Shown here: piece by piece, positions 2,700 through 53,808 of the stretch
How positions within the stretch are numbered: position 1 is the first letter of the stretch
How the letters are laid out: each line of letters begins with the position of its first letter
Assembly: GCA_965242515.1 (NCBI GenBank)
Contig: OZ251448.1
Location: forward strand, 163,117 to 227,116
Source of the DNA: Bdellovibrionales bacterium
GTDB taxonomy: Bacteria; Bdellovibrionota; Bdellovibrionia; Bdellovibrionales; UBA1609
Direction of reading: 5' to 3'
Length of the DNA: 64,000 bases
Notes under the pieces: generated by a model
The model's input: only the letters and a program-made list of their open reading frames with translations
Database searches by the model: none
What the model was told of the DNA's origin: nothing
Program-made: the position numbers and the translations under genes

Positions 2700-4055
2700 A
2701 TGAAATACATTTGCTTTGTTTTATTATTAGCGTGTCATTATATGGCAAGTGCGAGCCATGATGCAGATTTTTTATCAGCAGTTTATTGGAACAAGGTTGA
2801 AAAAGCCACTCAGTTTTTAAAAAATGGTGCTGTGGATGTTAATACAATAGATAAGTTTGGTGACACAGCTTTGCATAAGGCTGTTATGTATGGGTATAAG
2901 GACATGGTAGTGGAATTATTAAAATTCAAACCTGACACCAATCTTGTTAATTTAAAAGGTTATACCCCACTTTATATTGCGACTTTTGCTAACTATCCAA
3001 ATATTGCAGAGGAGTTACTTAAAAACAACGCAGATGTTAATATTATAATAGAAGATAAGGTAAGTGGCAGTAGTATTGAAACAGCACTGCATTATGCAGC
3101 AAGGCAGGGGCTTTTAAAAATTGCAAGTGTGTTATTAGAGTATGATGCCGATACGGAAGTTAAAGATGAGCATGGTAGAACGGCTTTACATCTTGCTACT
3201 GAGTATAGGCAAAAACAAACTGTTGCTTTATTGTTAGAGCATGGTGCAGATATTGAGGCTAAAACTTCTCAAAGTGTTCTCCCAGCTTATATGTCTGACA
3301 CTGTCGATAAGCATAAGATATTTAAGGGACTTGATAAACCTATTTTATTCACATCGCTTCATATTGCATCACGCGAAGGGTTTGTTGATATAGTGGATTT
3401 ATTATTAGAAAAAGGTGCTGACATAAATTCGCGAAATGTGTATGATTCTACTCCTTTACATTTAGCTTCCGAAGAGGGGCAAAAAGATGTTGTTCGTTTA
3501 TTGCTAGAGCGTGGTGCAGATACCACACTTAAAGACTCTGTGTATGGCAATTTAGCTTTGCATTTTGCTGCAAAATCTCATAGTGTCAGCACATTAGATT
3601 TATTATTAGAAAAAAGTACTGATATAAATATTAAAAATCAGGATGATGAGACATTACTTCATATTGCAACAGGGCATGGACATCGTGAAATTGTAACACA
3701 CTTGCTTAATAAAGGTGCGGATATAGAAGTTAAAGATGAGTATGGTAGAACGGCTTTACATCTTGCAACTTGGCATGGTTTTGCGGATATTGTTACTTTG
3801 TTATTAGAAAAAGGTGCTGATATCAATGCTCAAAATAATTTTGGTGATACACCGCTACATTTAGCTGTTTATTATGGTCGTAGTAAAGATATTATTATGC
3901 AACTTATAGAAAGTGGAGCTAATAAGGATATTGTTAATAATAAAGGTAAAACGGTTTTTTGTCAGATGCAGTATGAGTATAATAAGGTATTTATGAAGTT
4001 ATTAAAAGAAAAGCCCCCATTTTTAGCTTCTTTTTCTTTTGACAAATGTAACTAG
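2700..4055 (+). CDS. secreted ankyrin-repeat protein
   Basis: 451 aa with a signal peptide (MKYICFVLLLACHYMASA/SH). About 10 ANK repeats are visible (for example GRTALHLATEYRQKQTVALLLEHGADIEAK, STPLHLASEEGQKDVVRLLLERGADTTLKD). The protein ends ...FSFDKCN. Confidence 0.9.
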   Translation: MKYICFVLLLACHYMASASHDADFLSAVYWNKVEKATQFLKNGAVDVNTIDKFGDTALHKAVMYGYKDMVVELLKFKPDTNLVNLKGYTPLYIATFANYPNIAEELLKNNADVNIIIEDKVSGSSIETALHYAARQGLLKIASVLLEYDADTEVKDEHGRTALHLATEYRQKQTVALLLEHGADIEAKTSQSVLPAYMSDTVDKHKIFKGLDKPILFTSLHIASREGFVDIVDLLLEKGADINSRNVYDSTPLHLASEEGQKDVVRLLLERGADTTLKDSVYGNLALHFAAKSHSVSTLDLLLEKSTDINIKNQDDETLLHIATGHGHREIVTHLLNKGADIEVKDEYGRTALHLATWHGFADIVTLLLEKGADINAQNNFGDTPLHLAVYYGRSKDIIMQLIESGANKDIVNNKGKTVFCQMQYEYNKVFMKLLKEKPPFLASFSFDKCN

Positions 4056-4358
4056 TATTTTTTTTGCTACTTGTTTTGCGGGATAACTGCAACCCCCTTT
4101 TGGGGCTTGGACCCGAAAAATATCCCTCTCCCGCTCTTTAATTTAAAGTTGTATTTATTAGTCTATGGATTGGATGAGGTTGGGGCATGCTAGGATTACA
4201 TCAAATAAAACACGCCTTGCGTGTGAGCATGGTTTTTCCCCTTATATCAAAAGCGACCCGCTTTGTGGGCGTTTTGGTTTTCTTACTATTTAAATAGTTA
4301 CATTTGCTATTGAGAGGCATTGATTGGATGAAAGTAGAGCATGCAGGTAGGTAATGGA
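4056..4358. repeat. composite of dispersed intergenic repeat modules (B half-copy 4106-4148, linker modules, A-type ends 4225-4287)
   Basis: 4106-4148 (CTTGGACCCGAAAAATATCCCTCTCCCGCTCTTTAATTTAAAG) matches 51675-51717 with 1 mismatch. The linker GTATTTATTAGTCTATGGATTGGATGAGG recurs in reverse orientation at 12715-12750 and 55530-55570. GAGCATGGTTTTTCCCC is an A-module end. Confidence 0.7.
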
Positions 4359-5090: not shown

Positions 5091-5202
5091 AATATCTCTC
5101 CTTTTGTTATACTTTTTTTGTAACACAGCTCAATTAAAACATACTAACAGTTTTTTTATAAATCAGCAAGTTTAAATCATCCAGGTTAATAAAACTCAAA
5201 AG

Positions 5203-5643: not shown

Positions 5644-5700
5644 TTTTTAAGCCTATTTTATAAATTTGAGATAATATTAGAAAAAAATCAACATAGAAAT

Positions 5701-5730: not shown

Positions 5731-5800
5731 TCTGGTATTGTATTAAACTTAATTGTTTGATTTAACATTTATAAAAAGTAAAAAAAGGTGAATAAGTAGT

Positions 5801-6181: not shown

Positions 6182-6185
6182 TAAT

Positions 6186-11300: not shown

Positions 11301-11374
11301 CTTGTTGTGTGCCACATCTCACCTGCTTACAATTTAACATTTATAAAGCCAAAGTGGCAATTTTTTTGTGCCAC

Positions 11375-11435
11375 ACTTCGCTTGGACCCAAAAAAATTGC
11401 CTTTACCTCCATAAGTTAAAACATTATTTATTAGG
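11375..11435. repeat. B-module dispersed repeat (variant)
   Basis: CTTCGCTTGGACCCAAAAAAATTGCCTTTACCTCCATAAGTTAAAAC resembles 15450-15510 and the right half of 55990-56040. It is preceded by the small hairpin GTGGCA..TGCCAC (11355-11375). Confidence 0.6.
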
Positions 11436-12867: not shown

Positions 12868-13746
12868 TTATTGAGAACTACCATATCGTCGTTTTAATCT
12901 AGCAGAGAATAAGTCATCTTCATTCCCTTTATAAGGGTTGCTGAAATGGTCATAAGGTGCAGGCGTAACTTTTTCAGCATCTTTTCTTGCATCTGCTTGT
13001 TTAGTTTTAGGGAATGCCGAAGGTGCCAAGTTGCAAGACTCCCAACTGCGATACTTGCAAAATAACTCCCATCCCACAAGATGCATTTCACCTACCATGG
13101 CGTCAAATTGTGCAGTACCTACATTGTCTAATATCTTTGCAACATTTCTTTCATCAGGGTTATCTGCTAAATATTTTACTAATTTACGAATCACATAGCC
13201 ATTAAAGTTATCTTCTGGTTTCAAACTGTTGGGATTATGTGTTTGTTGAATACGCTCAAGAGCATTCAAAGCATCTCTTCGTACGTAGTAATCAAGCTTT
13301 TTATTTGTTGCCATATAAGCTAACCTTTCGTGTATGATATGGTCTTTAGGTTGCCTAGATCCTAAAAGCTTTATCATATCTCTTACATGGTATTCATCAG
13401 TCTCGTAAGGTAAAACCTCTTCCGATAATGTACGCATAACTTGAGAGTCATCCACTGTACTATATCTTAAAGTGTCTAATGCATGGCTACGCTCCCGGTT
13501 GCTACTATCATATTTTAAAGTATGAAAAATACTTTGCACTTGCTCTGAGTTAAGATCCTTATTATATTTATATTTTTTAGATCCTTTTAGCTCTGTCCAA
13601 TCAGTGTATCTGTCTTGAACTTTTCTCTTTCCTTTTCTGCATGACCAGAAATTAAGCTTGCATCCTGTACTTCTAATATCTGTAGCAAAAGCCATAGATG
13701 GTACAATAAGCCCCATACTGATTAAATAGATGATAAGATGTTTCAT
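12868..13746 (-). CDS. secreted HEAT-like repeat protein (hypothetical)
   Basis: 292 aa with a signal peptide (MKHLIIYLISMGLIVPSMAFA/TD). CKLNFWSC follows directly after the predicted cleavage site. Helical-repeat segments resemble HEAT/PBS-lyase repeats (YYVRRDALNALERIQ, RERSHALDTLRY). Confidence 0.6.
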   Translation of the reverse strand: MKHLIIYLISMGLIVPSMAFATDIRSTGCKLNFWSCRKGKRKVQDRYTDWTELKGSKKYKYNKDLNSEQVQSIFHTLKYDSSNRERSHALDTLRYSTVDDSQVMRTLSEEVLPYETDEYHVRDMIKLLGSRQPKDHIIHERLAYMATNKKLDYYVRRDALNALERIQQTHNPNSLKPEDNFNGYVIRKLVKYLADNPDERNVAKILDNVGTAQFDAMVGEMHLVGWELFCKYRSWESCNLAPSAFPKTKQADARKDAEKVTPAPYDHFSNPYKGNEDDLFSARLKRRYGSSQ

Positions 13747-13871: not shown

Positions 13872-15146
13872 TTAACACCATTTAAATAATTTTTTACAGT
13901 TTTGATAAGATTCTTCTAATTCTTGCTCATGCTGATGTATTTTTGTTAAAGTGGTGTTGATGTGTTGTAAAATAATAGGGTTTTTTTCTACTTCTTGTTG
14001 TTCTACTAGTAGTGCGTAAATATCTTGTGTGTAAAAATGCTGATAAGAGGATTGTATGTTGTTAATAGCTATGGCTACCTCTAAGCGTACATCTGGATTA
14101 GGGTCATTTAACTTATTGGTTAATGCTGTAAGAATGTGAGGGTTATTTGGCTTAATCATTCCTAAAGCCCAGGCACATCGAGCCTGTTTTTTCTTGTAAG
14201 GAGCATTATTTAAACATTCTGTTAATTTTGCATTAGTTAAAGGTGCATCAATACGACCAAAACCTAATAAATCAATAGTAATGCTTTGTACGTGAGCTTT
14301 TTGGTGTGATATAAGATCCGCTAACATGTTAATAATAACAGGATGATAGGTACGTATTTTTTGTAAAGCTATCATTACAGCATGTTGTATGTGTGGATCA
14401 TCTAAATACTTTGTGAGTTTTACCAAAATGTCTAAATTGTCTGGTTTAATAACCCCTAAAGCCCAGGCTGCATTAGTTCGTACATGTTTTTTTTTATGAT
14501 TTAAAGCATTAACTACTATTTGATGTACCTTTAAATTTTTAGGTTGTAATTTCCCTAAAGTCCAAGCCCCTAGCCAACTAATATGCTTGTTTTTGTTAGA
14601 TATGTATTTAGCTAATGTGGTATGTACGGTTAAATTGCTTGATTGCGTTACCGCTAAAGCCTCTGCCATTGTTGCTCTGACATGCCAGTTAGGAGATGTC
14701 ATATTTTTTACTAATGTTAAATGAATGGCATGTTCTTTGGGTTTAATAACTTTTAATACCCATGCACAGTGCATCCTGGCATAATGCTTTTTGTAAGATA
14801 AACATTGGTGTAATTTTTTAATAACAGATTTGTCTGTAGGGTGGATGGTTTTTAATGCTTCAGTAGCGACATTCCTTGCAGGTAAATAAGAATCATTTAA
14901 CACAGTTATTAAACTTAATTGCACTTTCACATCATTAGGGTAGGTTTTAGCTAAATCATTGACTGCCGATATACGCTTTTTTAATTGCCGAGATGATAAC
15001 TGCTTTATTAATTGCTTTTTAGATTTGGTAGTTACTGGCTTTTCTGAAGAAAAACCTTGAGCAGTACTCATTTTTTTTGCTTGTACAATATTATGATGTA
15101 ATATAATTACAAACAATAATAAAATAATTTTAATTATGGCTTTCAT
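13872..15146 (-). CDS. secreted HEAT-repeat protein
   Basis: 424 aa with a signal peptide (MKAIIKIILLLFVIILHHNIVQA/KK). About 9 repeats have the pattern ..HVR..AAWALG.IKP.N (KKKHVRTNAAWALGVIKPDN, KKKQARCAWALGMIKPNN, DPNPDVRLEVAIAINNIQ). The protein ends ...QNCKKLFKWC. Confidence 0.85.
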   Translation of the reverse strand: MKAIIKIILLLFVIILHHNIVQAKKMSTAQGFSSEKPVTTKSKKQLIKQLSSRQLKKRISAVNDLAKTYPNDVKVQLSLITVLNDSYLPARNVATEALKTIHPTDKSVIKKLHQCLSYKKHYARMHCAWVLKVIKPKEHAIHLTLVKNMTSPNWHVRATMAEALAVTQSSNLTVHTTLAKYISNKNKHISWLGAWTLGKLQPKNLKVHQIVVNALNHKKKHVRTNAAWALGVIKPDNLDILVKLTKYLDDPHIQHAVMIALQKIRTYHPVIINMLADLISHQKAHVQSITIDLLGFGRIDAPLTNAKLTECLNNAPYKKKQARCAWALGMIKPNNPHILTALTNKLNDPNPDVRLEVAIAINNIQSSYQHFYTQDIYALLVEQQEVEKNPIILQHINTTLTKIHQHEQELEESYQNCKKLFKWC

Positions 15147-15429: not shown

Positions 15430-15510
15430 GAGGGAAAGGGTGATTTTTTAAGGGTCCAAGCGAAGCGTCCCTATAAAAAATTTACCCTTTCCCTCCATAA
15501 GCTAATAAAC
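15430..15510. repeat. B-module palindromic repeat (full copy)
   Basis: GAGGGAAAGGGT (15430-15441) and ACCCTTTCCCTC (15484-15495) are inverted repeats flanking AAGGGTCCAAGCGAAGCG. That inner sequence is the reverse complement of the CGCTTGGACCC core seen at 4106, 11380 and 51675. Confidence 0.7.
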
Positions 15511-20597: not shown

Positions 20598-21300
20598 TGA
20601 TTTGATGTCTATTATAGAGAGTGTGTTATTTGCGGTGCAAAGACCTTTGTCGCTTAGGGATTTTTCTCGTCTTTTTTATGGAGAAAAGGTGAGTGTCAAA
20701 GATATTCAAAAAGCTTTAGGGGATTTAACTAAGAGATATGAGCTTCATAGTAGTGGTATTATTTTGCAAGAGGTTGCAGGGGCTTGGCAAATCAGAACTA
20801 AAGAGGAGAACAAACACTACATTCGGCGGTTAGTAAAGGGGCGGGGTTTTTATTTATCCAACCCAGCTATGGAGGTATTATCTATTGTAGCCTATCGTCA
20901 GCCTGTTTCTAAAATGAGCATTGACAATGTCAGAGGTGTGGAGTCGGGTCATTTATTAAGAACCTTAATCGAAAAAGACTTAGTGTGTTTTGGTCCTAAA
21001 AGTGATTTACCCGGAAAACCTGCTACCTACAAAACCACTGCACGATTTTTAGAAGTTTTTGGCTTAAAAAGTTTAAAAGAACTTCCCTCTTCTGATGATA
21101 TTGCAGACTTAATGCCTTCGGCAGATACGGATCTTGCATTAAACAACGACGAGGCATTAACATCTTCTTTACAGGTTGCAAAAAATTGGAGTGATCTAGA
21201 ATCGCAAAAAAGAGTGATTGACAAAGAGTGGCAAACTGTTTCTGAAAAAATACAATCAGTACCTACCACCACTCCTGTTATTAAAGAGCTAAATAAATGA
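20584..21300 (+). CDS. scpB: segregation and condensation protein B
   Basis: IIESVLFAVQRPLSL..., then GGAWQIRTK and YLSNPAMEVLSIVAYRQPVSKMSIDNVRGV (tandem winged-helix ScpB pattern). Confidence 0.88.
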   Translation: MLAHNDLMSIIESVLFAVQRPLSLRDFSRLFYGEKVSVKDIQKALGDLTKRYELHSSGIILQEVAGAWQIRTKEENKHYIRRLVKGRGFYLSNPAMEVLSIVAYRQPVSKMSIDNVRGVESGHLLRTLIEKDLVCFGPKSDLPGKPATYKTTARFLEVFGLKSLKELPSSDDIADLMPSADTDLALNNDEALTSSLQVAKNWSDLESQKRVIDKEWQTVSEKIQSVPTTTPVIKELNK

Positions 21301-34935: not shown

Positions 34936-34970
34936 AATCACTTTAGAGCAATAAATAACCCCCCCTTTGG

Positions 34971-34987: not shown

Positions 34988-35132
34988 GGAGGCAGGGTTA
35001 TGTATTGCTTTTTAAGCTGATTTTGAATAAATATTTTTAAAAAAGTTTAAAAACCTTTTAAAAATTTTAAGAATAATAAGAAATTATTATTTTTAAAGTG
35101 GATAATTAAGGTAGAATAATAAGGAGATTAGA

Positions 35133-37676
35133 ATGAAATATTTACATTTAATATACTTAACATTGTTACTGTGGGGAGCTGGTATTTGTGTAGCAACAGC
35201 ACAGCCAAAAGCTACAACTGGTGAAAACAAACCACCAGAGCTTACTAATGCACAAAAGATTGAAAGGGCAAAAAAAGCAAAAGAGCAAGAAGGTTTGAAC
35301 ACATTAGCTACTGAGGTAGTTGATGAGGATGTTAAGCGAGATGCTGAAATACTTTCTGAAAAGGCTAAAGAGCTCTCACAAGAGGCTGAGCAAACGGAAC
35401 AAGCAAAAGATGATCTTACTAAAAAGGCTAAAGAGCTCTCACAAGAGGCTGAGCAAACGGAACAAGCAAAAGATGATCTTACTAAAAAGGCTAAAGAGCT
35501 CTCACAAGAGGCTGAGCAAACGGAACAAGTAAAAGACGATCTTACTAAAAAGGCTAAAGAGCTCTCACAAGAGGCTGAGCAAACGGAACAAGTAAAAGAC
35601 GATCTTACTAAAAAGACTAAAGAACTCTCACAGGGTACCAGAGATCTTTCTGAAGCAACACAAAAAATTTTAAAAGATGCAGAAGCCAAAGGAATGCCTC
35701 TTGATGAAAATATCAAAAAAGTTTTAGAGCAAGCAAAGGAGGTATCTAAGAAGGCAAAGGAGGTATCAGACACAGCTGATGATGCTGCTCAAAGTGTCAG
35801 TGAGGCATCTAGGAAGGTGAAGGAGGCATCAGACACAGCTGATGATGCTGCTCAAAGTGTCAGTGAGGCATCTAGGAAGGCGAAGGAGGCATCAGACACA
35901 GCTGATGATGCTGCTCAAAGTGTCAGTGAGGCATCTAATAAGGCAAAGGAGGTATCAGACACAGCTGATGATGCTGCTAAAGAAGCAGGAGAGCTTTCTA
36001 AACAAGCAGGAGAGCTTTCTGAACAAGCTGATGATGTATCTGAAAAAGTACAAGAAGATTCTACTTCACTAGACGAAACTCTTTCTGCATCATCTACTGA
36101 AGGTTTAAAAAAAATCTATCTTCGTAAAGAATGGGAAAAAAGAATTACTGCACTTAAACATGACTTAAAACTATTGAAAGAAAGGTTAGATACCATTTCC
36201 CCAGAGGTATTAGCAAATCCATTTAATGCTCTTTATTCTGAAAAAATAGATGTACAAATGGATGCATTAGCTGTGATTGTTTATTCTGACAAACAAGATC
36301 CTAGTTGGCATGTGCAATTAGCAGAATTTATTGAATCCTTGTCAGGAGATTCAAGCTCTGAGGGGCTTATAATACGCAATTTAGCTATTTTAGCTTTAAC
36401 TTGGTTTAAAACTCCTAACCCGGACATTCAACATGTATTAATAGATGTTATTTTAGAATATAAAGATGAAAATGAATATACAAAAAAAGTCACTGTTGAG
36501 ATTCCTAAAAGTGCTGCTTTTGCTTTAGGTTTTTCCCCCGTGCATGACGAGCAGGTAATAAATCAGCTAATAAAAATAGCTTTACAAAACCCTAATGCTT
36601 CTGTTCGTAGTTCTGCTATGTCTAGTTTAAGGTTTTTAGATGTAGATGATCCTAAATATTACAAAAAGTTAGAAAAGGGATTATCAGATCCGTTTGATTT
36701 AGTAAATACTTACACTGTCCAGCTTTTAGCTGGCGTATATGTGAATACAAAAGATGAGTGGGTGTTTCAGAAAATAATAAAAGCTCTTTCTAGCACAACA
36801 GTAAGTGTCAGAAAAATGGCTCTTAAAGCCCTTATTAAAATAAATTACATTATTCCTAATTTTGATGTTAAAAAAATTACACCCTATATTATAGATAGTT
36901 TAGAAGATTCTGACACAGGTATTAAATCTATTGCTATGTCTGCTGTTTCAAAACTACAATTAAATGATCTAAAAACCATTCGTACTGTGATGAAAGAGCT
37001 ACTTCAAACCACCAATGCAACACAAAATAAAGTATTATTTATTACCAGTTTAGGTGATTTACAAGTTAAAAGTAATTGGATTAATAATAACCTACTTACT
37101 TTTTTAGAAGATGCATCAGCTGAAATACGCATGGCGACAGTCAAAACATATAAAAAAATTAAACCAAAATCTTCTAAAATTCATATTAAATTAATTGATA
37201 GGCTATTGGATGCTGATCCAAAAATACAATGGGCAACTATTTGGGCTATTGACAGTATTCGCCCTACAAGTAACAAGTTTTATAATAAATTAGCTGATAA
37301 ATTATCTCAATTAGACCCATATATTCGGGTAGCTACTTTACAGTTTTTACAAAGAAGTAAGGTGAAAAATACAAAAATTACGACAGCTTTATCTCAATTA
37401 GTATCTAACAAAGAAGATCAACAACAAAACCCTGATGAAATAAGATTAGAAGCCCTTAAGGCTTTAAAGAATATGGACTGGTATAAAAGTACAAGTGAAG
37501 AAGTAGCAACAGAAGAACAAAAAAAAGATATAAAAAACGAATTAGTTAAAGCATTAGAAGACTCCAACCCAGAAGTAAGAAAAGCCGCAGCCAGTGCTTT
37601 AAACGAAGCAGGCGTATTGAGCCTTGAGCTTTTGAAATATAATGCATTATGTATTCTAGCTAATAAATGGTGTTAA
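35133..37676 (+). CDS. large secreted protein: coiled-coil 21-aa tandem repeats + C-terminal HEAT repeats
   Basis: 847 aa with a signal peptide (MKYLHLIYLTLLLWGAGICVATA/QP). There are two arrays of 21-aa repeats. The C-terminal ~500 aa contain HEAT-like units (DPKIQWATIWAIDSIRP, DPYIRVATLQFLQRS, DSNPEVRKAAASALNEAG). The protein ends ...NALCILANKWC. Confidence 0.85.
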   Translation: MKYLHLIYLTLLLWGAGICVATAQPKATTGENKPPELTNAQKIERAKKAKEQEGLNTLATEVVDEDVKRDAEILSEKAKELSQEAEQTEQAKDDLTKKAKELSQEAEQTEQAKDDLTKKAKELSQEAEQTEQVKDDLTKKAKELSQEAEQTEQVKDDLTKKTKELSQGTRDLSEATQKILKDAEAKGMPLDENIKKVLEQAKEVSKKAKEVSDTADDAAQSVSEASRKVKEASDTADDAAQSVSEASRKAKEASDTADDAAQSVSEASNKAKEVSDTADDAAKEAGELSKQAGELSEQADDVSEKVQEDSTSLDETLSASSTEGLKKIYLRKEWEKRITALKHDLKLLKERLDTISPEVLANPFNALYSEKIDVQMDALAVIVYSDKQDPSWHVQLAEFIESLSGDSSSEGLIIRNLAILALTWFKTPNPDIQHVLIDVILEYKDENEYTKKVTVEIPKSAAFALGFSPVHDEQVINQLIKIALQNPNASVRSSAMSSLRFLDVDDPKYYKKLEKGLSDPFDLVNTYTVQLLAGVYVNTKDEWVFQKIIKALSSTTVSVRKMALKALIKINYIIPNFDVKKITPYIIDSLEDSDTGIKSIAMSAVSKLQLNDLKTIRTVMKELLQTTNATQNKVLFITSLGDLQVKSNWINNNLLTFLEDASAEIRMATVKTYKKIKPKSSKIHIKLIDRLLDADPKIQWATIWAIDSIRPTSNKFYNKLADKLSQLDPYIRVATLQFLQRSKVKNTKITTALSQLVSNKEDQQQNPDEIRLEALKALKNMDWYKSTSEEVATEEQKKDIKNELVKALEDSNPEVRKAAASALNEAGVLSLELLKYNALCILANKWC
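35355..35640 (+). repeat. in-frame 63-nt tandem repeat array 1 (about 4.4 units)
   Basis: The GCTAAAGAGCTCTCACAAGAGGCTGAGCAAACGGAACAAG.AAAAGA.GATCTTACTAAAAAG unit starts at 35364, 35427, 35490 and 35553, with a degenerate copy at 35616. It encodes KAKELSQEAEQTEQ(A/V)KDDLTK. Confidence 0.95.
35733..35990 (+). repeat. in-frame 63-nt tandem repeat array 2 (about 4 units)
   Basis: TCAGACACAGCTGATGATGCTGCT... recurs at 35766, 35829, 35892 and 35955 and encodes SDTADDAAQSVSEASRK.KEA. It is followed by a 21-nt duplication (GGAGAGCTTTCT.AACAAGC x2) near 35988-36030. Confidence 0.95.
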
Positions 37677-37719
37677 ATATATTAATAAATTTAAAATGTT
37701 TAAAAAGGAGGCTATAAAA

Positions 37720-38679
37720 ATGTATTTTTTACAAGTATTTTTTACGAGTATTTTTTTCTTAGCAGTTTTATTTGGTCCATCAATAGGGCTTAGTTCTACA
37801 ACTACAACACAACAAGGAATGGCACGCCCTATTCTTTTAGATGAATTACAAAGCTTTGATATAGATGTAAGAAAAAGTGCCATTCGCTCTTTTCCCCTAT
37901 CTAAATTAAACAATAAAGAATATATAACCTTACTTGCTCAAATTTTATTAGAAGATAATGTTGCTGAAGTGCGTCAAGAAATGGCACTTTACCTTTTAAA
38001 TAACATAAACGAGCTAGCTATTACAGAAGAGTTATCTTCTATAATAGCTCAATCAGCCACTCGTAATACGGATAAAAAAACAAAAGAATTATCTTTAAAA
38101 CTAACAAAAGGACTAGGACAACCAAAGCTTGTTAATGAGTTATATAGTTCTGATGTAGATGTAAGAAAAAAAACTATTCGCTCTTTCCCTATATCTAAAT
38201 TAAAAGAAAAAAAATATGTAGACATATTAGCTCAGATTTTAACAGAAGATAGTGTTACTCCACTGCGTCGAGAAGTGGCACTTTACCTTTTAGCTCACAT
38301 CAACAAATTACCGAGTACAAATATTATACACACACTATCTACGCAAGCCATTCGCGATGCGGATAGTAGTGTAAGATCACTTGCTGTACAAGGGATAGCC
38401 TCTTTTCGCCCTAAGACTCAAAAGTTACAAAGCATGCAAACAAGTGCTTTATTAGAGGCTTTATCTGATAAGAATGAAGGGGTGCGTCTTCAAGCTATTT
38501 TAGGTTTAGGGCAAAATGCTCATGTTGCACAAAATGTCTCAGTTCGCCATAATTTACTTAACACAGCTCGTTATGATATAGATCCAAAAATAAGAGAACA
38601 GGCTGATACAGTTTTGATACAGCTTACTGGTGGCTCTTCTGTAAGACCCCTTTGTGAAAGGGTGTTTTCTCTTAAATAA
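37720..38679 (+). CDS. secreted HEAT-repeat protein with internal duplication
   Basis: The start is set at the second ATG (track frame 37696 + 24), preceded by AAGGAGG. The signal peptide is MYFLQVFFTSIFFLAVLFGPSIGLSS. There is a duplicated ~95-aa module (LDELQSFDIDVRKSAIRSFPLSKLNNKEYITLLAQILLED.. versus VNELYSSDVDVRKKTIRSFPISKLKEKKYVDILAQILTED..). The protein ends ...RPLCERVFSLK. Confidence 0.8.
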   Translation: MYFLQVFFTSIFFLAVLFGPSIGLSSTTTTQQGMARPILLDELQSFDIDVRKSAIRSFPLSKLNNKEYITLLAQILLEDNVAEVRQEMALYLLNNINELAITEELSSIIAQSATRNTDKKTKELSLKLTKGLGQPKLVNELYSSDVDVRKKTIRSFPISKLKEKKYVDILAQILTEDSVTPLRREVALYLLAHINKLPSTNIIHTLSTQAIRDADSSVRSLAVQGIASFRPKTQKLQSMQTSALLEALSDKNEGVRLQAILGLGQNAHVAQNVSVRHNLLNTARYDIDPKIREQADTVLIQLTGGSSVRPLCERVFSLK

Positions 38680-38751
38680 AAAAATATTTTTTTGTAGTTA
38701 TAAGAAAATTTACTTGGTTTAGGTGTTGTACTATAGTAAAGTAAGGGGGAT

Positions 38752-39279
38752 ATGATTTTTAAAACAATATTTACTCTATTTAAACTGGTATTTAAGCTAA
38801 TTTTATTGAAGGTAAAAAGGCTTTGTGCTTTGTTGCATGGTGCTTTGCCAAGCCGTGTCAAAAAAGTTAATGGTATGACTTTTGTAGAGATTTTGGTTGT
38901 TTTAACAATTATTGCAGGTATTGCTTCTTTAGGTATTACGAAGTATATGGCACAGTTAGATAAAGCTAAGGTGAAGCAGGCGAAGATTTTAATCACTCGT
39001 ATTGCCGAGGCTTTTGAGACTTTTTACATGGATTGTTCTTATTATCCTTCTACAGATGAAGGGTTATCGGCTTTAGTGCTAGCTCCGGAGCGTTGTGGTG
39101 AGGCATGGGGCCCGGAGCCTTATTTAAAAAACGGCAAAATCCCCAAAGACCCTTGGAAAAACGACTTTATCTACCGTTACGACACGACTACAGGTCGTTT
39201 TGAGATCCTGAGTTTAGGCAAAGGAGGGGTAGAAGGTGGTAAGGGTGTGTCGGCTGATATTTCTTCGCAAGAGATATAA
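38752..39279 (+). CDS. gspG: type II secretion major pseudopilin GspG
   Basis: Prepilin motif ..KKVNG/MTFVEILVVLTIIAGIASLG with Glu at +5. GspG-specific core YYPSTDEGLSALV...PYLKNGKIPKDPWKNDFIYRYD..GRFEILSLGKGGVEGG. The ATG at 38752 (GGGGGA Shine-Dalgarno upstream) gives a 41-aa leader; internal TTG starts at 38830, 38833 or 38845 would give 10-15 aa. Confidence 0.9.
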   Translation: MIFKTIFTLFKLVFKLILLKVKRLCALLHGALPSRVKKVNGMTFVEILVVLTIIAGIASLGITKYMAQLDKAKVKQAKILITRIAEAFETFYMDCSYYPSTDEGLSALVLAPERCGEAWGPEPYLKNGKIPKDPWKNDFIYRYDTTTGRFEILSLGKGGVEGGKGVSADISSQEI

Positions 39280-40021
39280 TAATATCTCCACCTGTTTTTC
39301 TCAAAGGTGGTGTTTTTTTTCTAATAGATTTATTAAGAACAACAAAGCTATGACCTTGTTAGAAATAGTGGTTGTTATGACCTTACTGGCTGGTTTTTTT
39401 ATTGTAGGTGTGCCTCTTATTAAAAAACGAGACAATGCGGTTAAACAAATGTTAAGGCGTATAACAGCCATTAATCGGCAGTTAGACAGTCAGGCTCGGC
39501 TGAAAGGAGTAACTTACAGGTTGGTATTTTCTATAGATTCTAAGGATAGTTCTTGGTGGGTAGAAAAAAAACAGACGCCCCAGCTTAAAAAAAAAATCTC
39601 TTCAGAAAATAATAACACCAGCGATAATACAAGTGATAATACCAGCGATAACACAAGTCCCACAGATGATGTATCAGATACATCTGATAGTCGCCATTTA
39701 GATCGGTTAGCAAGCTCTTCTGCTATGGATCAAGTTCGGCAAGAGTTATTGGAAGGTAACCTTAAAGCTCGCATCTTTAAAAAAGACACAAGCATTTTAA
39801 AAAAAGCACAAACTTTACCTTTGGGCTTGGTTTTTGAAAGTGTATCTTTCAATAAAGGCAAAGATGTTGTTTCTCAGGGTTTAAGTTATATTTATTATAC
39901 TCCGGGTGGGCAGTTTAATAAAGTTTTGTTAAAAATAAAGGGGCGGAGCAGGTATTGGTCGTTATTATTTAATCGTTTAAACGGGGAGTTAGATATATTT
40001 CAGGAGAACAAACAATGGTAA
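39236..40021 (+). CDS. gspH: type II secretion minor pseudopilin, GspH-like
   Basis: Prepilin-like N-terminus ..KNNKA/MTLLEIVVVMTLLAGFFIVGVP with Glu at +5, in the position after gspG. An in-frame insert NNNTSDNTSDNTSDNTS comes from 12-nt repeats. The start is uncertain: ATG 39236 overlaps gspG by 44 nt, and ATG 39350 is the Met of MTLLE. Confidence 0.65.
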   Translation: MVRVCRLIFLRKRYNNISTCFSQRWCFFSNRFIKNNKAMTLLEIVVVMTLLAGFFIVGVPLIKKRDNAVKQMLRRITAINRQLDSQARLKGVTYRLVFSIDSKDSSWWVEKKQTPQLKKKISSENNNTSDNTSDNTSDNTSPTDDVSDTSDSRHLDRLASSSAMDQVRQELLEGNLKARIFKKDTSILKKAQTLPLGLVFESVSFNKGKDVVSQGLSYIYYTPGGQFNKVLLKIKGRSRYWSLLFNRLNGELDIFQENKQW

Positions 40022-40035
40022 CCATTAAATTAATT

Positions 40036-40108
40036 TTTTTACTATCATCATTTCTGCGTCAGTCGTCATTCCTGCGTCAGTCGTCATTCCTGCGTAGGCA
40101 GGAATCCA
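40036..40108. repeat. C-module repeat: 18-nt direct repeats + ATTCCTGC-GTAG-GCAGGAAT hairpin
   Basis: TCATTTCTGCGTCAGTC GTCATTCCTGCGTCAGTC GTCATTCCTGCGTAGGCAGGAATCCAG. A related double, inverted copy lies at 55835-55950. Confidence 0.8.
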
Positions 40109-40125
40109 GTAAGTGCAACTTTTTA

Positions 40126-40234
40126 AGTGAGAAAACCAAGTCAAAATCTTTGGACTGCGGTTTACCGCAAAGTGAAAGCCCAAGGCTACTACTTTGCGTT
40201 AAATCCGAACTCGTTTTGAATTGGTTTTCTCACT
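40126..40234. repeat. A-module palindromic (MITE/REP-like) element
   Basis: Terminal inverted repeats AGTGAGAAAACC (40126-40137) and GGTTTTCTCACT (40223-40234). The interior is nearly identical to that of 43386-43498 (..TTTGGACTGCGGTTTACCGCAAAGTG...GGCTACTACTTTGCGTTAAATCCGAACTCGTTTTGA..). Confidence 0.85.
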
Positions 40235-40332
40235 ATTTAAAGAGTTACATTTTTTTAGTAAAATTAATTAGTATAACATGAAACATACAATGATAAATAA
40301 AATTTACACTGGTTTATTACATGTTCTTTTTT

Positions 40333-40454
40333 GTAGAGAGAAAAACCATGCTCAAAACGAGTTCGGATTTGAACACAATGCGGAAAGCTCTAGGAGCTTT
40401 ACGCGTTGTGGCAAAACGCATGTCCGAGCTTTTGAGCTCGGTTTTTCCCTCTAC
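40333..40454. repeat. A-module palindromic element (opposite orientation)
   Basis: GTAGAGAGAAAAACC (40333-40347) and GGTTTTTCCCTCTAC (40440-40454). The interior reads CATGCTCAAAACGAGTTCGGATTTGAACACAATGCGGAAAGC...GAGCTTTTGAGCTCG. Confidence 0.85.
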
Positions 40455-40574
40455 AATGTTAGAGCAATAGATAAACATACAACCCTTGCCTATAACAAAA
40501 TTATCAGTGATTAATATTAGACAGAGCATATATTAAGTAATAATTTATGTTAAAAACAAAATAAAGGAAAGTGT

Positions 40575-41081
40575 ATGATGAAAGGTTTTACTTTGATTGA
40601 AATGATAGTGGCTTTAATGATCCTATCTAGCTCTGTTATACTACTTTCTCGCATGAAGTCAGGCAATAAAAACCGAATCGATAAATCCTATCACTATCAC
40701 AAAGCTGTGTTACTGCTAGAGCAAAAAATAACAGAGTTGGAGTTAGAATGGAGTAGTCAGAGTTTCGACTCTATTCCAACAGAACAAAAAGGGCAATTTA
40801 CAACGCAAAAGGATTTTTCATGGAGTGTGAAAACAAAACCTCTATCTATGCCTTCTGCGGAGGATATGTTTAAATCCTTAGGTGCTGATAGTGATATTGT
40901 GCTTTATATAATACGTACCACTTCAGAGTTTTTAACATCTTCTATTAAAGAGGTGAAAGTCACCGTGCATTATAATAAACATAAAAAGAAAAGCTCTTAC
41001 TCTCTTAGCACCTACATTGTGGACTACAGTAAAAATATACCATTTGCACAACTGCTTTTACAATTACAAAACAGCAATTAA
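40575..41081 (+). CDS. gspI: type II secretion minor pseudopilin GspI
   Basis: Canonical short leader and cleavage site MMKG/FTLIEMIVALMILSSS. It is 168 aa and sits in the position between the H-like and J-like genes. Confidence 0.75.
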   Translation: MMKGFTLIEMIVALMILSSSVILLSRMKSGNKNRIDKSYHYHKAVLLLEQKITELELEWSSQSFDSIPTEQKGQFTTQKDFSWSVKTKPLSMPSAEDMFKSLGADSDIVLYIIRTTSEFLTSSIKEVKVTVHYNKHKKKSSYSLSTYIVDYSKNIPFAQLLLQLQNSN

Positions 41082-41107
41082 TATATAGATTATATAATAG
41101 GTTATTT

Positions 41108-42019
41108 ATGAGGTTACAAAAGTATTGTTATTTTTTTAAAGGCAAGGTTATTTGTCAGATTATTTGCCAGATTATTTGTCAGGCTATTAGTAAGGTTTTT
41201 TTTAAAAGTACTTACAAGTCAAAAGCTTTTACTTTATTAGAAGTGATGATAGCTATGACTTTATTTTCTGTTATGGCGTTATTTTTAATGCGTATTACGG
41301 ATTCAGGGGTTAGGTATCAAAAAATTATTACAAAAAATGTTAAAAACATCCGAAGTATCAGGTCAGTATGGCAAGTTTTGAGACAAGATTTTTATAATGT
41401 TTTTTTAGTAAAAAATAAACATGTTTTACTCCATAGTGAGCTTATGAGATTAGCTCCAGATCGTAAAAACAATAACCTTTCACGAAGAGGAGTTCCCTCT
41501 CCTGAAGGTTTAGATGATTATGGGCGAAGTCGCAATGTTCCTAAAGAATCATCACCTAGACCTCCTACAAAACCTCCTTTAGTGGGGCAATTTAAAGGCA
41601 CTGATGAGCAGGTATATTTTACCACTTTATCTCATGGACACACGAGTGTTTTATCACCTCAAAGTGATAGTACTTTGGTGTTTTATTATTTAAAAGCTTG
41701 CCCTCATAAAGACACCAACAAAGCCCAGCGTTGTTTATGGCGAAAAAGTTTTTTGGATATAACTGCTGACCCTGAAAAGGCTGAAAATGGAACAGAGTTT
41801 TTGTTGTTAGAAAATGTTAACAAAATTAAGTTAGCCTACTTTAATATTTTAGATAACGAGTGGAAAAACCAGTGGCCCATGGGGGTGCAATCCAGTAACT
41901 TGTTACCTGTTGCGGTAAAAATTGTATTAGTTTTTCAAAACAAAAAAAAACAGATTGTTACTAAGCAGTTAATACTACCTATTCATAGGAACTACATTGC
42001 TTTACGGATGTTGAGGTAA
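41108..42019 (+). CDS. gspJ: type II secretion minor pseudopilin GspJ
   Basis: Prepilin motif ..YKSKA/FTLLEVMIAMTLFSVMALFL with Glu at +5, about 260 aa mature size, in the J position. The 40-aa N-terminal extension contains ICQIICQIICQA from 12-nt repeats, and there is no alternative ATG/GTG/TTG closer to the motif. Confidence 0.7.
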   Translation: MRLQKYCYFFKGKVICQIICQIICQAISKVFFKSTYKSKAFTLLEVMIAMTLFSVMALFLMRITDSGVRYQKIITKNVKNIRSIRSVWQVLRQDFYNVFLVKNKHVLLHSELMRLAPDRKNNNLSRRGVPSPEGLDDYGRSRNVPKESSPRPPTKPPLVGQFKGTDEQVYFTTLSHGHTSVLSPQSDSTLVFYYLKACPHKDTNKAQRCLWRKSFLDITADPEKAENGTEFLLLENVNKIKLAYFNILDNEWKNQWPMGVQSSNLLPVAVKIVLVFQNKKKQIVTKQLILPIHRNYIALRMLR

Positions 42020-42059
42020 AAATTACATGTTTAAAAGTTGTATTATAAACAATAGATAT

Positions 42060-43307
42060 ATGAAAAACCAAAAAGGGATGGCTATTATTATGGTACTCTC
42101 TACTTTGTTGTTTGTGTTTTTACTGATTCAAGAAACTGTGTTTGAAACACGAGTAGAACATGCTGTATCCAGTAAAGAGCTCCACGATTTACAAGCTTAC
42201 TATATGGCTAAAGCAGGTATGGAACTTAGTTTGTTAAGAATTCGAACTTACAACACACTAGCTGAAAAAATAACAGGTATGAAAGAGGCATTATTTATGC
42301 GACCTTATTTAGACTTAATGTGGCGACTTCCCTTTGGCTGGCCCCCTTTGTTAGTACCACTAGAGGAGGAGCAGGCAGAAGATGACTCACATTCAAGCAC
42401 AAAGCAAAAATCCCTTTTTAACAAGGGTGGCTATACCACTTTTTTACAAACCACAGGTGGGCGTATTGATGTCAATAATTTAAGCTCCCCTATCCCTCAA
42501 TTAAAAAAGTGGACTTATTTTATACTGTTTGCGTTAATTAAAAAATTACAAGATGAAAATAACACCCTTAAGGCTTTAACGGATTCAGATATTTCTAAAT
42601 TGTTAAATAATATCAGCGATTGGATAGATTTAGACTCGATGCAACAAACGGAAGCTGGTATTAGCACTTTGCCAGAAAACATTTTGTACGAGTTACCCAC
42701 TCGCCCCCTCAACCGCAAGCTGATTAACATGCAAGAGTTGTTACCTGTTAAAGGTATGACACATCAACTCTACCAAGCCCTAAAGCCTTTTATCACAGTT
42801 TTTGGAGAAAACACACTCAACCTGAATACTCTACCAGCACTGCTGATGCAAAGCTTGCACCCTGATTTAAATGCTCAAGTTACTCAAAGTATTACCGATA
42901 AAACGCATAAAATACTTAACCCCCTCATGCTGAATTGGGCTTTATTTACGCAAAGCATAAAAGCAGAAGGCTTAGGTCATATTGTGGAAGACTGGCAAAA
43001 CAACCCTCGCTTCATATTTGAAGCCACTGGAGATGATGGTAAAGTTGGGACTATGAAAAATTTTGTACATTTTAACTCACCGTATAATTTTAAAATTGTA
43101 AGTATCGGTCGTGCTGGTGGGAGTCAGAAAACGATTACGGCTATATATATAGACTGGAAGGGTTTATTTAAGCACACTCAAAAGCTATCAAATATATTGA
43201 GTAAAAGTAGCAGTAGCAAAAGGGGCAAGGGCAGGGGTAGTAACTTCAGTTCTCCTCCCTTAGAGTTAAATAATCCTTCAATAATTTACTGGAAAGTTAG
43301 CTCTTAA
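42060..43307 (+). CDS. gspK: type II secretion minor pseudopilin GspK
   Basis: The start is set at MKNQKG/MAIIMVLSTLLFVFLL. GspK-like features are present: no Glu at +5, GRIDVNNLS and NTLNLNTLPALLMQSL (NxNTA-type helix-hairpin motifs). Mature size is about 410 aa. Confidence 0.75.
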   Translation: MKNQKGMAIIMVLSTLLFVFLLIQETVFETRVEHAVSSKELHDLQAYYMAKAGMELSLLRIRTYNTLAEKITGMKEALFMRPYLDLMWRLPFGWPPLLVPLEEEQAEDDSHSSTKQKSLFNKGGYTTFLQTTGGRIDVNNLSSPIPQLKKWTYFILFALIKKLQDENNTLKALTDSDISKLLNNISDWIDLDSMQQTEAGISTLPENILYELPTRPLNRKLINMQELLPVKGMTHQLYQALKPFITVFGENTLNLNTLPALLMQSLHPDLNAQVTQSITDKTHKILNPLMLNWALFTQSIKAEGLGHIVEDWQNNPRFIFEATGDDGKVGTMKNFVHFNSPYNFKIVSIGRAGGSQKTITAIYIDWKGLFKHTQKLSNILSKSSSSKRGKGRGSNFSSPPLELNNPSIIYWKVSS

Positions 43308-43385
43308 GAGGGTAGTCTAGAGAGCAATAGGTGAAAATTTTAGAGGTACAGGTGAAAAAACTTAAAATTCAAAAGCTTTTTTCGC

Positions 43386-43498
43386 AGAGGGGAAAACCGA
43401 GCTCAAAAGCTTTGGACTGCGGTTTACCGCAAAGTGTTAGCCAAAGGCTACTACTTTGCGTTAAATCCGAACTCGTTTTGAGCATGGTTTTCCCCTCT
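43386..43498. repeat. A-module palindromic element
   Basis: AGAGGGGAAAACC (43386-43398) and GGTTTTCCCCTCT (43486-43498). It lies in the gspK-gspL spacer and is the source of the spurious ORF 43331..43573. Confidence 0.85.
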
Positions 43499-51758: not shown

Positions 51759-51843
51759 TGGAGGTAATTTTTTTTTGATTTTTTGCATTTATAAAGGGTA
51801 TATATATTTGAAGCAGATACTAAAAAATAAGGAAATAATAAGG

Positions 51844-53808
51844 ATGAAAAAATTACTAGCTATTTTACTTAGTGTGGGTTTTGTTAAAGCATCATTCGCT
51901 ATAGATTCTACCGGAGTGTCGTCTGCTGGTTTTACTGGAACAACATTTAGTGCGGATGCTAATATGAGTAATTCTGTTTCAGAAATAAAACCAGAAAAAG
52001 ATAAGCATTTTAATATACCTTCGTGGTTAGAGGAACATCAAATATCTCGTGATTATCAAGAAGCTTATTTTATTGGTAGGCAATTAACATATTTATATGT
52101 TTTAGATGTGATAGGTCGTGATGAAGTAAATTCTACTCAAGCTAAAGAGATATTTTTAATGATTAAGCAAGCACTATATAGTCCAAGTGCGTTGATACAA
52201 TTAGAAGCTTTATATATTTTAAAACATTGGACTTTCCCTGCAAAAATGTTTTATAAAAAAATTGCACAGCTTGCTGTATTTAGTAAAAATAGTTTAGTGG
52301 CTAATGAAGCTCTTTGGCTTTTAGAAGAACATGCTACTTCAGTAACTTTTCCATTCCATGTACAACAGATATTAGTGTTAGCTTTAAAAAGCAACTTTGT
52401 AGGTTATCGGAAAAGAGTATTTAACATTTTATCTAGTCAGAAGAAGATAGATCCTTCAGTTAAATCTAAACTACATGTAGCTGTAGAAAAAGAAAATTAT
52501 CTAAAACAAGTTATAGAATTAAAACCAGAGGTTATGCAGTCTTTAAAATCTGACTTGTTAGAAGAATCTCCATCATTTGTAAAGCACGCTATGGCACAAT
52601 TATCCAACATTGATCGGAGTAACACACAAGTATCTCAATTTTTAGCTAGTTTATTAACTAAAGAGTTATCTAGTTTTCAATTTGCAAAACTTATTGAAGT
52701 CATTGAGGCTTTAAGAATATTTAATGCAGATACGGTTCCTCCTATTTTACATTTTATGAGATATAAATCTATGAATAAACTTTGGCAGATTTTAAGAATG
52801 CTTGAAAAAACCCCCATGTCATGGCACGCACAAATATTTCATAATATAAAAAACATTGTACTTTATTTTGATACAAGGCATCAAAACTTAGCTTATTATG
52901 TATTACAAAAAATATTATGGTACAATCCTCAAGTGCGAAAACATATTAGAACTATTTTTTATTCTAATGACCCCACACATGTTGATTTAAGAAATTTGTT
53001 ATTTCATTCTGCTTCTCGTTACAGGGTGGCTGGGTTGTATCTTTTAAGTGAGTTACATTCTGTATCTTATGATGCAATTAAAGAGTACTTATTAGATTCT
53101 TTATTTGATAAATTTCCGTTTAAAAATTTTATGTCTTTATTAGCTATAGAGCAGTTATCATTTATCAATGAAGATATTAATGTACAAAAGTTACTTATAA
53201 AAAAGCTTTACGATAATGATTCTAGTGTGTTTGTGCGATCATTTATTATCCGTTCGTTACGAAACAAGAAATTTACTGATTTATCTATATTACGCAATAT
53301 GTTGCATTTCGCTTTGTTTGATTCTTCTCAAGCCGTGCGAACACATGCTATTTATATACTGGGAGACATGCAACATTCAGAACATTTATTAGAATTTCGC
53401 CATACAGTAGTTGATGTATTAACTAGTCTACTTAAAAATCCTGTTCTGGGTATAATAGGATCTACTAAGCCAGATTTAAAAATAAATGATATATTTTCAT
53501 CTAGAAATGATACACAAAATACCACGGGTACAAATAAAGTATTATTTATTATTGAGTGGAAGGCTATTATATCAGCTCTGGGTGAGTTAAATGTACAAAA
53601 ACCTAAAGTATGGAAAGCATTAGCAAAGTTTTTAAATACTTCTAATGTAACACATCAAAAAACGGTACTTGATACATTAAAAAAATTACAACCTACGGAT
53701 CCTGAAATTATAAAAACAATGCAAACTATAGAAGGTAAAAAAACATTAAACACAACATCAACAGATAATGTATCAAATATTGATTCTTGTAGAACAGCTT
53801 TTAACTAA
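51844..53808 (+). CDS. secreted HEAT-like repeat protein, tandem paralogue 3
   Basis: The start is set at ATG 51844 (MKKLLAILLSVGFVKASFA/ID); the track ORF opens at TTG 51775. It contains PSWLEEH and is colinear with paralogues 1 and 2 throughout. It ends ...IDSCRTAFN. Confidence 0.8.
   Translation: MKKLLAILLSVGFVKASFAIDSTGVSSAGFTGTTFSADANMSNSVSEIKPEKDKHFNIPSWLEEHQISRDYQEAYFIGRQLTYLYVLDVIGRDEVNSTQAKEIFLMIKQALYSPSALIQLEALYILKHWTFPAKMFYKKIAQLAVFSKNSLVANEALWLLEEHATSVTFPFHVQQILVLALKSNFVGYRKRVFNILSSQKKIDPSVKSKLHVAVEKENYLKQVIELKPEVMQSLKSDLLEESPSFVKHAMAQLSNIDRSNTQVSQFLASLLTKELSSFQFAKLIEVIEALRIFNADTVPPILHFMRYKSMNKLWQILRMLEKTPMSWHAQIFHNIKNIVLYFDTRHQNLAYYVLQKILWYNPQVRKHIRTIFYSNDPTHVDLRNLLFHSASRYRVAGLYLLSELHSVSYDAIKEYLLDSLFDKFPFKNFMSLLAIEQLSFINEDINVQKLLIKKLYDNDSSVFVRSFIIRSLRNKKFTDLSILRNMLHFALFDSSQAVRTHAIYILGDMQHSEHLLEFRHTVVDVLTSLLKNPVLGIIGSTKPDLKINDIFSSRNDTQNTTGTNKVLFIIEWKAIISALGELNVQKPKVWKALAKFLNTSNVTHQKTVLDTLKKLQPTDPEIIKTMQTIEGKKTLNTTSTDNVSNIDSCRTAFN

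Follow-up and report, generated by a model that had tools for sequence, protein, structure and literature searches.

The stretch analyzed here, 64,000 nucleotides of the Bdellovibrionales contig OZ251448.1 (hereafter the window), encodes exported HEAT-repeat proteins that end in a short cysteine-centered tag with the consensus [small][small]-C-[K/Q/R/E/S]-x-[V/A/I/T/L]-F plus zero to four residues, and we consider it very likely that this tag is a real, selected functional element. The original prediction had described a single tag shared by all nine signal-peptide ankyrin (ANK) and HEAT proteins of the window, which are named here by the lowest coordinate of their genes (Table 1). All nine quoted termini were present and could be read back exactly; however, the description merges three things, namely the HEAT tag, a loop of two cysteines (C-x6-C) and a cysteine pair in the ANK proteins. 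The two ANK proteins and 35133 lack the C-x-x-h-F core of the consensus, and 12868 carries its motif only near the N-terminus. The family assignments themselves held up: Pfam confirms both ANK proteins and places 13872, 35133 and 37696 in HEAT_2 at 66-89 bits, with 49619 and 51844 at a weaker 34-36 bits (cut-off, 27.7 bits), whereas 47620 falls under the Pfam HEAT cut-off and is a solenoid in its AlphaFold2 (AF2) model. An N-terminal signal-like hydrophobic segment was found in all nine proteins by a crude check only.

The five window copies of the tag read CKGVFR, CQKAFH, CRTAFN, CERVFSLK and CKKLFKWC, and the proteins bearing them share one layout: a signal peptide, an alpha-solenoid, a disordered linker that varies in length and sequence, and the tag. 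Three of them are tandem paralogues (47620, 49619 and 51844, here paralogues 1 to 3) that are 46-49% identical; the 20-40 residues leading up to the end vary in both length and sequence, and within the last six residues the cysteine (Cys) and phenylalanine (Phe) are invariant. C643 is the sole Cys of mature paralogue 1, and the tag Cys is likewise the only one in mature paralogue 3 and in 37696, while paralogue 2 has one more within the solenoid. In 13872 a second Cys, seven residues after the first, closes the tag to give the end CKKLFKWC. The same protein has internal Cys pairs in its repeats, C115/C127 and C311/C324 (..QCLSYKKHYARMHCAWVL.. and ..ECLNNAPYKKKQARCAWAL..), which share one layout and look like disulfide staples across helical hairpins.

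Relatives retain this element. A word-indexed protein search with paralogue 1 returned only the two other window paralogues, and a Joint Genome Institute metagenome scan gave no relatives of it. When 1.84 billion representative proteins were searched exhaustively by profile, four further full-length members and a shorter HEAT protein were recovered; the search reached only this family, and all five new members keep the tail. Their tails are ..TSSCKKTFEK, ..NNSCQKIF, ..AGSCKKAFKPRA, ..SGSCKNTFKTPA and ..GETCKKVF, with the shortened ends ..GSCKKAFKPRA and ..GSCKNTFKTPA among them. The loci of these members lie in two other genomes, represented by a 1.41 Mb contig (~33% guanine plus cytosine, GC) and an 898 kb contig (44% GC), and 10 of the 11 HEAT proteins from these two small genomes bear the tag. 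On the 1.41 Mb contig (ERZ25070167; locus L082, 10001-16200) we observed a tandem array of five signal-peptide HEAT genes, 23-27% mutually identical, four of which end in GETCKKVF, PSSCSKIFRKF, GRSCKNVF and GISCEKIFNS; the fifth has no C-terminal tag and carries a Cys near its mature N-terminus (..KTQVDICKGAMG..). Another locus holds four paralogues ending in S/RSCKNTFK(N/T)PA or GSCKKAFKPRA. In a 7-sequence alignment (22-49% identity) 41 of the 648 query positions are invariant, tail residues C643 and F647 included, and the Cys is invariant in all 15 HEAT tails. It is the only Cys in relatives P0002, P0004, P0005, P0006 and P0016, as in 37696, and the sole Cys of the whole or mature protein in most members. 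The claim of a conserved Cys-centered terminal element on exported repeat proteins is thus borne out for the HEAT subset, whose relatives keep both C and F. Of the two computational outcomes named beforehand as refuting the tag, namely a similar frequency in unrelated proteins and loss in orthologues, neither was observed for this subset.

The element is also specific. Across the window and the four loci from the two other genomes, the pattern C...F.{0,4}$ occurs in 15 of 17 signal-peptide HEAT genes and in none of ~116 other called genes (Fisher p = 6e-18), and it matches ~1% of spurious open reading frames (ORFs). Among the 51 window proteins (Cys 1.23%, Trp 0.96%, Phe 4.2%) it is found in five against 0.13 expected, a number reached in 0 of 20,000 tail shuffles, and WC.{0,1}$ in three against 0.012 expected (0 of 20,000 shuffles reach 3). 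Neither pattern was chosen in advance of the data, and tandem paralogues account for three of the five C...F proteins. A Cys lies within the last 10 residues of eight of the nine ANK/HEAT proteins and of four of the 42 others (Fisher p = 6e-6), the latter rate being that expected from composition. Chance is excluded for both end patterns, and conservation is the better evidence.

That the ends arise from chance, composition or a DNA-level constraint, such as a terminator or repeat over the 3' end, we find scarcely credible. The post hoc definition and the tandem copies would favor such an artifact, and the ANK ends could be coincidence plus paralogy. The HEAT tag, however, is kept across three genomes of differing GC (32-44%), is missing from the neighboring genes and exceeds every shuffle, so that conservation, specificity and shuffles refute this account of it. 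At the DNA level, both TGT and TGC encode the tag Cys, every one of the 15 tags with a Phe uses TTT for it, and the residues at the two middle positions vary; the constraint therefore acts on protein rather than DNA, and codon usage rules out a DNA-level cause. Readthrough into a hidden transmembrane (TM) segment was likewise rejected, as only a short gap or the next gene lies beyond the stops.

Profile alignment further indicates how the tag is distributed. With hhalign, the 650-aa family and the tandem-array family were linked end to end with their SCxKxF tails aligned (probability 97.9%, E = 3.6e-13), and window protein 13872 was related to the L082 array from residue 1 (probability 95.6%, E = 1.3e-8), while 37696 was only weakly related to the tagged superfamily (probability 8%). 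None of ~45 generic HEAT proteins from other lineages bears the tag, and a homologue search with 13872 returned only generic HEAT proteins without it. By these alignments the tag is a terminal module conserved within a single lineage-specific HEAT superfamily that is expanding in tandem, and it is so far restricted to three uncultured genomes. Because of this confinement, it was probably inherited within the superfamily rather than spread as a portable element on unrelated cargo. The idea of one tag common to ANK and HEAT proteins does not survive this result. A literature search found no description of this motif or of this lineage.

Structure prediction places the tag at an exposed site. In the AF2 model of paralogue 1, built from the 7-sequence alignment, the solenoid (residues 36-625) has a predicted local distance difference test score (pLDDT) of ~90 and the tail (628-648) a pLDDT below 50, with a short helix over C643-F647. 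As modeled, the tag sits on a disordered, accessible tail behind a rigid solenoid, and its Cys and Phe, at i and i+4, would share one helical face. Foldseek matched the model to CAND1, karyopherin-beta, PP2A-A and beta-catenin.

The reading we favor, tentatively, is that the tail serves as a flexible thiol leash through which the protein is covalently coupled to another molecule. After export into an oxidizing envelope, the unpaired tail Cys would make a covalent intermolecular bond, most simply a disulfide, and the short amphipathic basic-aliphatic-Phe turn around it would supply recognition or docking. Such a bond could couple the solenoid to another copy, a paralogue, an envelope partner or a host partner, and the C-x6-C variants would be a self-capped form whose second Cys lies seven residues on. 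The other exported window proteins mostly hold even numbers of Cys in local pairs (2, 2, 4, 6, 6 and 2); closely spaced pairs number three in 13872 and two in 12868, and occur in GspG and Bor as well. Even Cys numbers are reportedly a signature of oxidative folding. The envelope of this organism would thus be oxidizing, and a lone Cys exposed there would not be expected to remain free.

The leash draws on a functional analogy with the IgM/IgA secretory tailpiece and the acetylcholinesterase T-peptide, in which a C-terminal unpaired Cys drives the disulfide-linked assembly of secreted proteins. Like the HEAT tail, both are short flexible C-terminal extensions that combine a single unpaired Cys with hydrophobic or aromatic side chains; they differ in being eukaryotic, assembled in the endoplasmic reticulum and unrelated in sequence, so the analogy is mechanistic only. 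Among bacterial systems, the unpaired Cys of the phage spanins Rz/Rz1 form covalent homotypic links in the periplasm (PMC6139136). The spanin Cys, however, does not belong to any conserved terminal motif, and spanins bear no relation to the proteins studied here. Several points weigh against the leash. No partner with a complementary Cys was identified, and beyond the window and the four loci there may be non-HEAT proteins that bear the motif, or a cognate enzyme. A lone exposed Cys after small residues looks equally like a lipidation site, the C-x6-C variants imply that a free thiol is not always kept, and the many copies of the tag are not independent support for a portable function because the tagged proteins appear to share ancestry.

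The Cys might alternatively be a family-intrinsic residue that tethers nothing, serving in metal or cofactor binding, as a swinging-arm carrier in the manner of SoxY or DsrC, or in folding back into the solenoid groove. Inheritance within one superfamily and the existence of C-x6-C variants fit such a role. SoxY, which ends in GGCGG, carries sulfur on the lone Cys of a flexible C-terminal arm, and DsrC ends in C-x10-C-x, so that both resemble the HEAT tail in having a conserved Cys on such an arm and the two arm Cys of DsrC recall the C-x6-C variants. Both, however, are small dedicated carriers encoded with sulfur-metabolism genes, whereas neither sulfur-oxidation nor cofactor genes were found near the tagged genes in the window or at the relatives' loci. 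The low pLDDT of the modeled tail gives no sign of packing on the solenoid, and fast-diverging tandem paralogues (43-49% identity) suit binding or scaffold proteins more than carriers. We therefore regard a family-intrinsic role as quite unlikely.

Comparison with known terminal signals bears on a further possibility, that the tail Cys carries a lipid or other anchor (diacylglyceryl, acyl or prenyl-like), added by a bacterial enzyme or by a host S-acyltransferase after delivery, which we judge somewhat unlikely. The secreted solenoids would then be held on the bacterial surface or on host membranes by a TM-less, CaaX-like or inverted-lipobox-like counterpart of MYXO-CTERM. The nearest described kind of signal is indeed the Cys-containing C-terminal sorting signals of the MYXO-CTERM group. 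These MYXO-, JDVT-, Synerg- and CGP-CTERM signals are tripartite (motif, TM helix and Arg cluster) and are cut by CPBP/Rce1-like myxosortases (bioRxiv 10.1101/2023.06.07.544157; PMC11980579). MYXO-CTERM cargo is predicted to be Cys-lipidated and needs the type II secretion system (T2SS) to reach the surface (PMC11980579; bioRxiv 10.1101/2023.06.07.544157), and CPBP proteases act on long and short (CaaX) Cys signals alike (bioRxiv 10.1101/2023.06.07.544157). The likeness to the HEAT tag extends to a short C-terminal signature with an invariant Cys, to signal-peptide proteins and to many paralogous copies per genome; small residues (S/T/A/G) mostly precede the invariant Cys, basic and hydrophobic residues follow it, and the tagged genes flank T2SS genes in the window. 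Myxococcota, the phylum of MYXO-CTERM, and Bdellovibrio were both formerly classed in Deltaproteobacteria, and the host association suggested for this lineage (below) would also suit an anchor.

The differences are nevertheless substantial. Unlike MYXO-CTERM, the HEAT tag has no TM helix that would hold the Cys at the membrane, only 4-8 residues between Cys and stop, and no Arg cluster, since the ends are R, H, N, SLK, KWC, EK, KPRA, KTPA or nothing past F; it is also limited to one superfamily instead of diverse cargo. An NCBIfam scan of all nine proteins gave no CTERM model at E <= 0.01. No CPBP-family (PF02517) myxosortase, rhomboid or extra Lgt-like gene was found among the scanned unassigned window genes, and the T2SS adjacency is missing in relatives (below). 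The CaaX box, which certain bacterial effectors carry as well, Legionella AnkB among them, is similar in placing a terminal Cys before a few residues that include an aliphatic one, on eukaryote-like repeat proteins of a host-associated bacterium. In CaaX, however, the Cys is exactly fourth from the end and a1/a2 are aliphatic, whereas the HEAT-tag Cys lies 5-9 residues from the C-terminus and is followed at +1/+2 by K, Q, R, E, S, N, G or T (K, Q or R at +1 does not fit the box), and HEAT-tag proteins, unlike CaaX proteins, have Sec signal peptides. The lipobox of Lgt/LspA ([LVI][ASTVI][GAS]C) shares the small residues right before an invariant Cys, but ends the hydrophobic region of an N-terminal signal peptide, whereas the HEAT tag is C-terminal and the Cys of 12868 is set off by charged residues.

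The original prediction had also set the tag apart from LPXTG, PEP-CTERM, GlyGly-CTERM and the type IX secretion system (T9SS) C-terminal domain (CTD), and this distinction stands. The HEAT tag has none of the motifs, the TM helix or the basic tail of the first three. A T9SS CTD is a folded domain of ~80-100 aa, whereas residues 628-648 of paralogue 1 are disordered in the AF2 model and the rest is solenoid; neither NCBIfam nor Pfam matched such a domain in the nine proteins. Judged by its sequence, the HEAT tag matches no known bacterial sorting signal. In its most far-reaching form, the C-x-x-h-F tail would be the recognition site of an undescribed TM-less system of terminal Cys modification or anchoring, an extracytoplasmic counterpart of CaaX processing that covalently fixes T2SS-exported, eukaryote-like solenoids of this Bdellovibrionales clade to the cell surface or to host structures. 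We think this proposal unlikely; if true, it would amount to a prokaryotic protein-sorting signal of a new class, served by an enzyme of its own that has yet to be discovered.

The genetic context of the tag in the window led to the suggestion that it is linked to the adjacent secretion system. The cluster 35133-53808 is codirectional and contains, in order, two HEAT genes (35133 and 37696), gspG-L plus two further genes, and the three tagged paralogues, such that tagged HEAT genes flank the T2SS row on both sides; 37696 ends 73 nt upstream of gspG. The two genes at the expected gspM/gspN positions (45658-46467 and 46467-47474) have no Pfam match, and no genes for the secretin (gspD), ATPase (gspE) or platform (gspF) lie within the window, so these must be located elsewhere in the genome. 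No T2SS gene occurs within 10 kb of the tagged genes at the four loci in the two other genomes. The adjacency is therefore known from the window alone and is not conserved in relatives, and the proposed link lapses to that extent.

This result also bears on whether the tag is a non-covalent export or recognition signal with Cys and Phe as contact residues, which we consider very doubtful. The codirectional cluster, the accessible disordered terminus bearing the motif, and the apparent possibility of a tag at either end, given the N-terminal copy in 12868, speak for it. On the other hand, T2SS substrates are not known to have a linear terminal signal, relatives do not share the adjacency, a purely non-covalent contact would be an odd role for an invariant lone Cys in an oxidizing compartment, and the tag is limited to one superfamily instead of diverse cargo.

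Short Cys-containing terminal tags are an active topic in bacterial protein sorting, and the described classes all use a membrane-spanning segment to present the Cys to membrane enzymes. A strongly conserved lone-Cys tail with no such segment would be either an overlooked, simple disulfide tether or a pointer to a new modification or sorting enzyme. The carriers form a fast-diverging, tandemly expanded, eukaryote-like solenoid family, and the tag offers a precise and cheap experimental handle, and a search pattern for this effector-like family in uncultured small-genome Bdellovibrionales.

Outside the core tag, the C-x6-C loop is present in three window proteins, at the C-terminus of 13872 and 35133 and near the N-terminus of 12868; no orthologues of these loop proteins were found. 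The end of 35133, CILANKWC, forms such a loop and has KWC in common with 13872; lacking Phe, it does not represent the core tag. The N-terminal half of 35133 is encoded by two blocks of five 63-nt (21-aa) tandem repeats (35289-35666 and 35676-36053) that specify an acidic, Lys-rich coiled coil and that produce the antisense ORF 35093-35773 as a by-product. In 12868, CKLNFWSC lies ~8 residues past the predicted signal-peptide cleavage site, after AFA|TDIRSTG with its charged residues. It agrees with CKKLFKWC of 13872 at C, K, F and C, and the codons differ. This protein has no Pfam match; a single-sequence AF2 model showed helical hairpins at 67-169 (pLDDT 70-89) and a disordered N-terminal segment (15-61), and by this partial helical-repeat model it is at most a candidate HEAT/solenoid protein. 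As one clear case, 12868 is suggestive of an N-terminal form of the tag. In another genome, a sequence near an N-terminus (..DICKGAMG..) might be a further example, but Phe is missing from it and no homology was detected; a pairing of 12868 with the fifth gene of the L082 array as orthologous N-terminal-tag proteins was rejected at a BLASTP E of 2.4.

The ANK proteins follow a different pattern. Mature 2700 has exactly two Cys, C421 in the last degenerate ANK repeat (3960-3962) and the penultimate C450 (4047-4049; end ..DKCN), and mature 11492 also has two, C287 (11723-11725) and the penultimate C362 (11498-11500; end ..HQWCG). The two proteins are paralogous in their C-terminal cap, and their inner Cys occupy a homologous site of the last degenerate repeat (..TVFCQMQYEYNKVF.. 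vs ..TAYCSAGYKNYHKVI.., BLASTP E = 5e-5). This arrangement suggests that the pair is probably an internal disulfide pinning the C-terminal tail to the last ANK repeat. A search with 11492 matched mostly generic ANK proteins and found no orthologue covering the tail; 7.6% of 119 generic ANK proteins have a Cys in their last three residues.

That no other window protein ends in this way was correct for C-x-x-h-F, which is confined to HEAT proteins, but not for terminal Cys in general, which also occurs in MurE (..ATLC), the 62532-63467 product (..EVACKINK), a Bor-like lipoprotein (..KIWCRSKVKF) and an NlpC/P60-like lipoprotein. The KIWC near the C-terminus recurs in Bor-family lipoproteins, both in the window (30631-30993, minus strand) and at locus L083 (21518-21832, ..KIWCEWPP..), where a further family member (21136-21510) ends in ..RILCQVEK. 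It is a feature of the Bor family, unrelated to the HEAT tag though easily mistaken for it. On OZ241967.1, directly downstream of lysA (locus L001, 11374-12201), a 275-aa signal-peptide protein outside the HEAT group has a single Cys, at the third-last residue (..ARELREKCRR), and lacks the Phe. A lone terminal Cys may thus be wider among exported proteins of this clade.

Table 1. Coordinates of the ANK, HEAT and secretion features in the window
Feature	Coordinates	Strand	Details
Exported ANK protein, 451 aa	2700..4055	+	Pfam Ank E = 1.6e-82, 10 repeats
Exported ANK protein, 363 aa	11492..12583	-	Pfam Ank E = 9e-50, 5 repeats
Exported helical-repeat protein, 292 aa, adjoining 13872	12868..13746	-	CKLNFWSC at 13639-13662; no C-terminal tag
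Exported HEAT protein, 424 aa	13872..15146	-	End CKKLFKWC at 13875-13898
Exported HEAT protein, 847 aa	35133..37676	+	N-terminal 21-aa tandem-repeat coiled coil, C-terminal HEAT; end CILANKWC at 37650-37673
Exported HEAT protein, 327 aa (319 aa from 37720)	37696..38679	+	Tag CERVFSLK at 38653-38676
Type II secretion pseudopilin/assembly genes gspG, H-like, I-like, J, K, L	38752..47474	+	Pfam T2SSG, N_methyl, T2SSJ, T2SSK_1st, PilM_2/T2SSL
HEAT/alpha-solenoid paralogue 1, exported, 648 aa	47620..49566	+	Tag C643-KGVF-R at 49546-49563
HEAT paralogue 2, 644 aa from ATG at 49619	49619..51553	+	Tag CQKAFH at 51533-51550; Pfam HEAT_2 35.7 bits
HEAT paralogue 3, 654 aa	51844..53808	+	Tag CRTAFN at 53788-53805; Pfam HEAT_2 34 bits

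The window has ~36% GC and belongs to a genome of ~1.76 Mb, its proteins being assigned in the protein database to one contig of 1,761,023 bp, and public runs holding its DNA cover it flatly. Its housekeeping genes include pnp, rpsL-rpsG-fusA, the aspartokinase and lysA genes, mutS, guaB, murE, gcvP and uvrA. In a scan of 185,579 species genomes, the closest match to its LysA was the 2.3 Mb Bdellovibrionales metagenome-assembled genome OZ241967.1 (62% identity), followed by LysA of Pseudobdellovibrionaceae and Bdellovibrio (43-44%); the lysA neighborhood of OZ241967.1 has no ANK or HEAT genes and no synteny with the window. Sequence related to the window (8% of words) was present in one sponge metagenome run. 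The source is therefore an uncultured, small-genome Bdellovibrionales organism, and the ANK and HEAT content, the 1.4-1.8 Mb genome size and this sponge run suggest that it is probably host-associated.

Two kinds of repeated DNA were also observed. Gene 37696 contains an internal duplication (37814-38025 and 38108-38319, 75% identical, 294 nt apart), each copy of which starts ..S(F/S)D(I/V)DVRK..IRSFP(L/I)SKL... Short intergenic repeats are dispersed through the window (4105-4149, 11341-11424, 15445-15500, 34783-34958, 39928-40568, 43330-43570, 51560-51770, 55396-56000 and 60008-60298); occurring in part as inverted pairs, they resemble miniature inverted-repeat transposable elements or repetitive extragenic palindromes. 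Their word depth in public runs is 36-345x, compared to 5-12x in the flanking genes, and contig joints link the copies. They break the T2SS row at gspH/gspI and gspK/gspL and also lie between HEAT paralogues 2 and 3, and the ORFs 40015-40281 and 43331-43573 within them are probably not genes.

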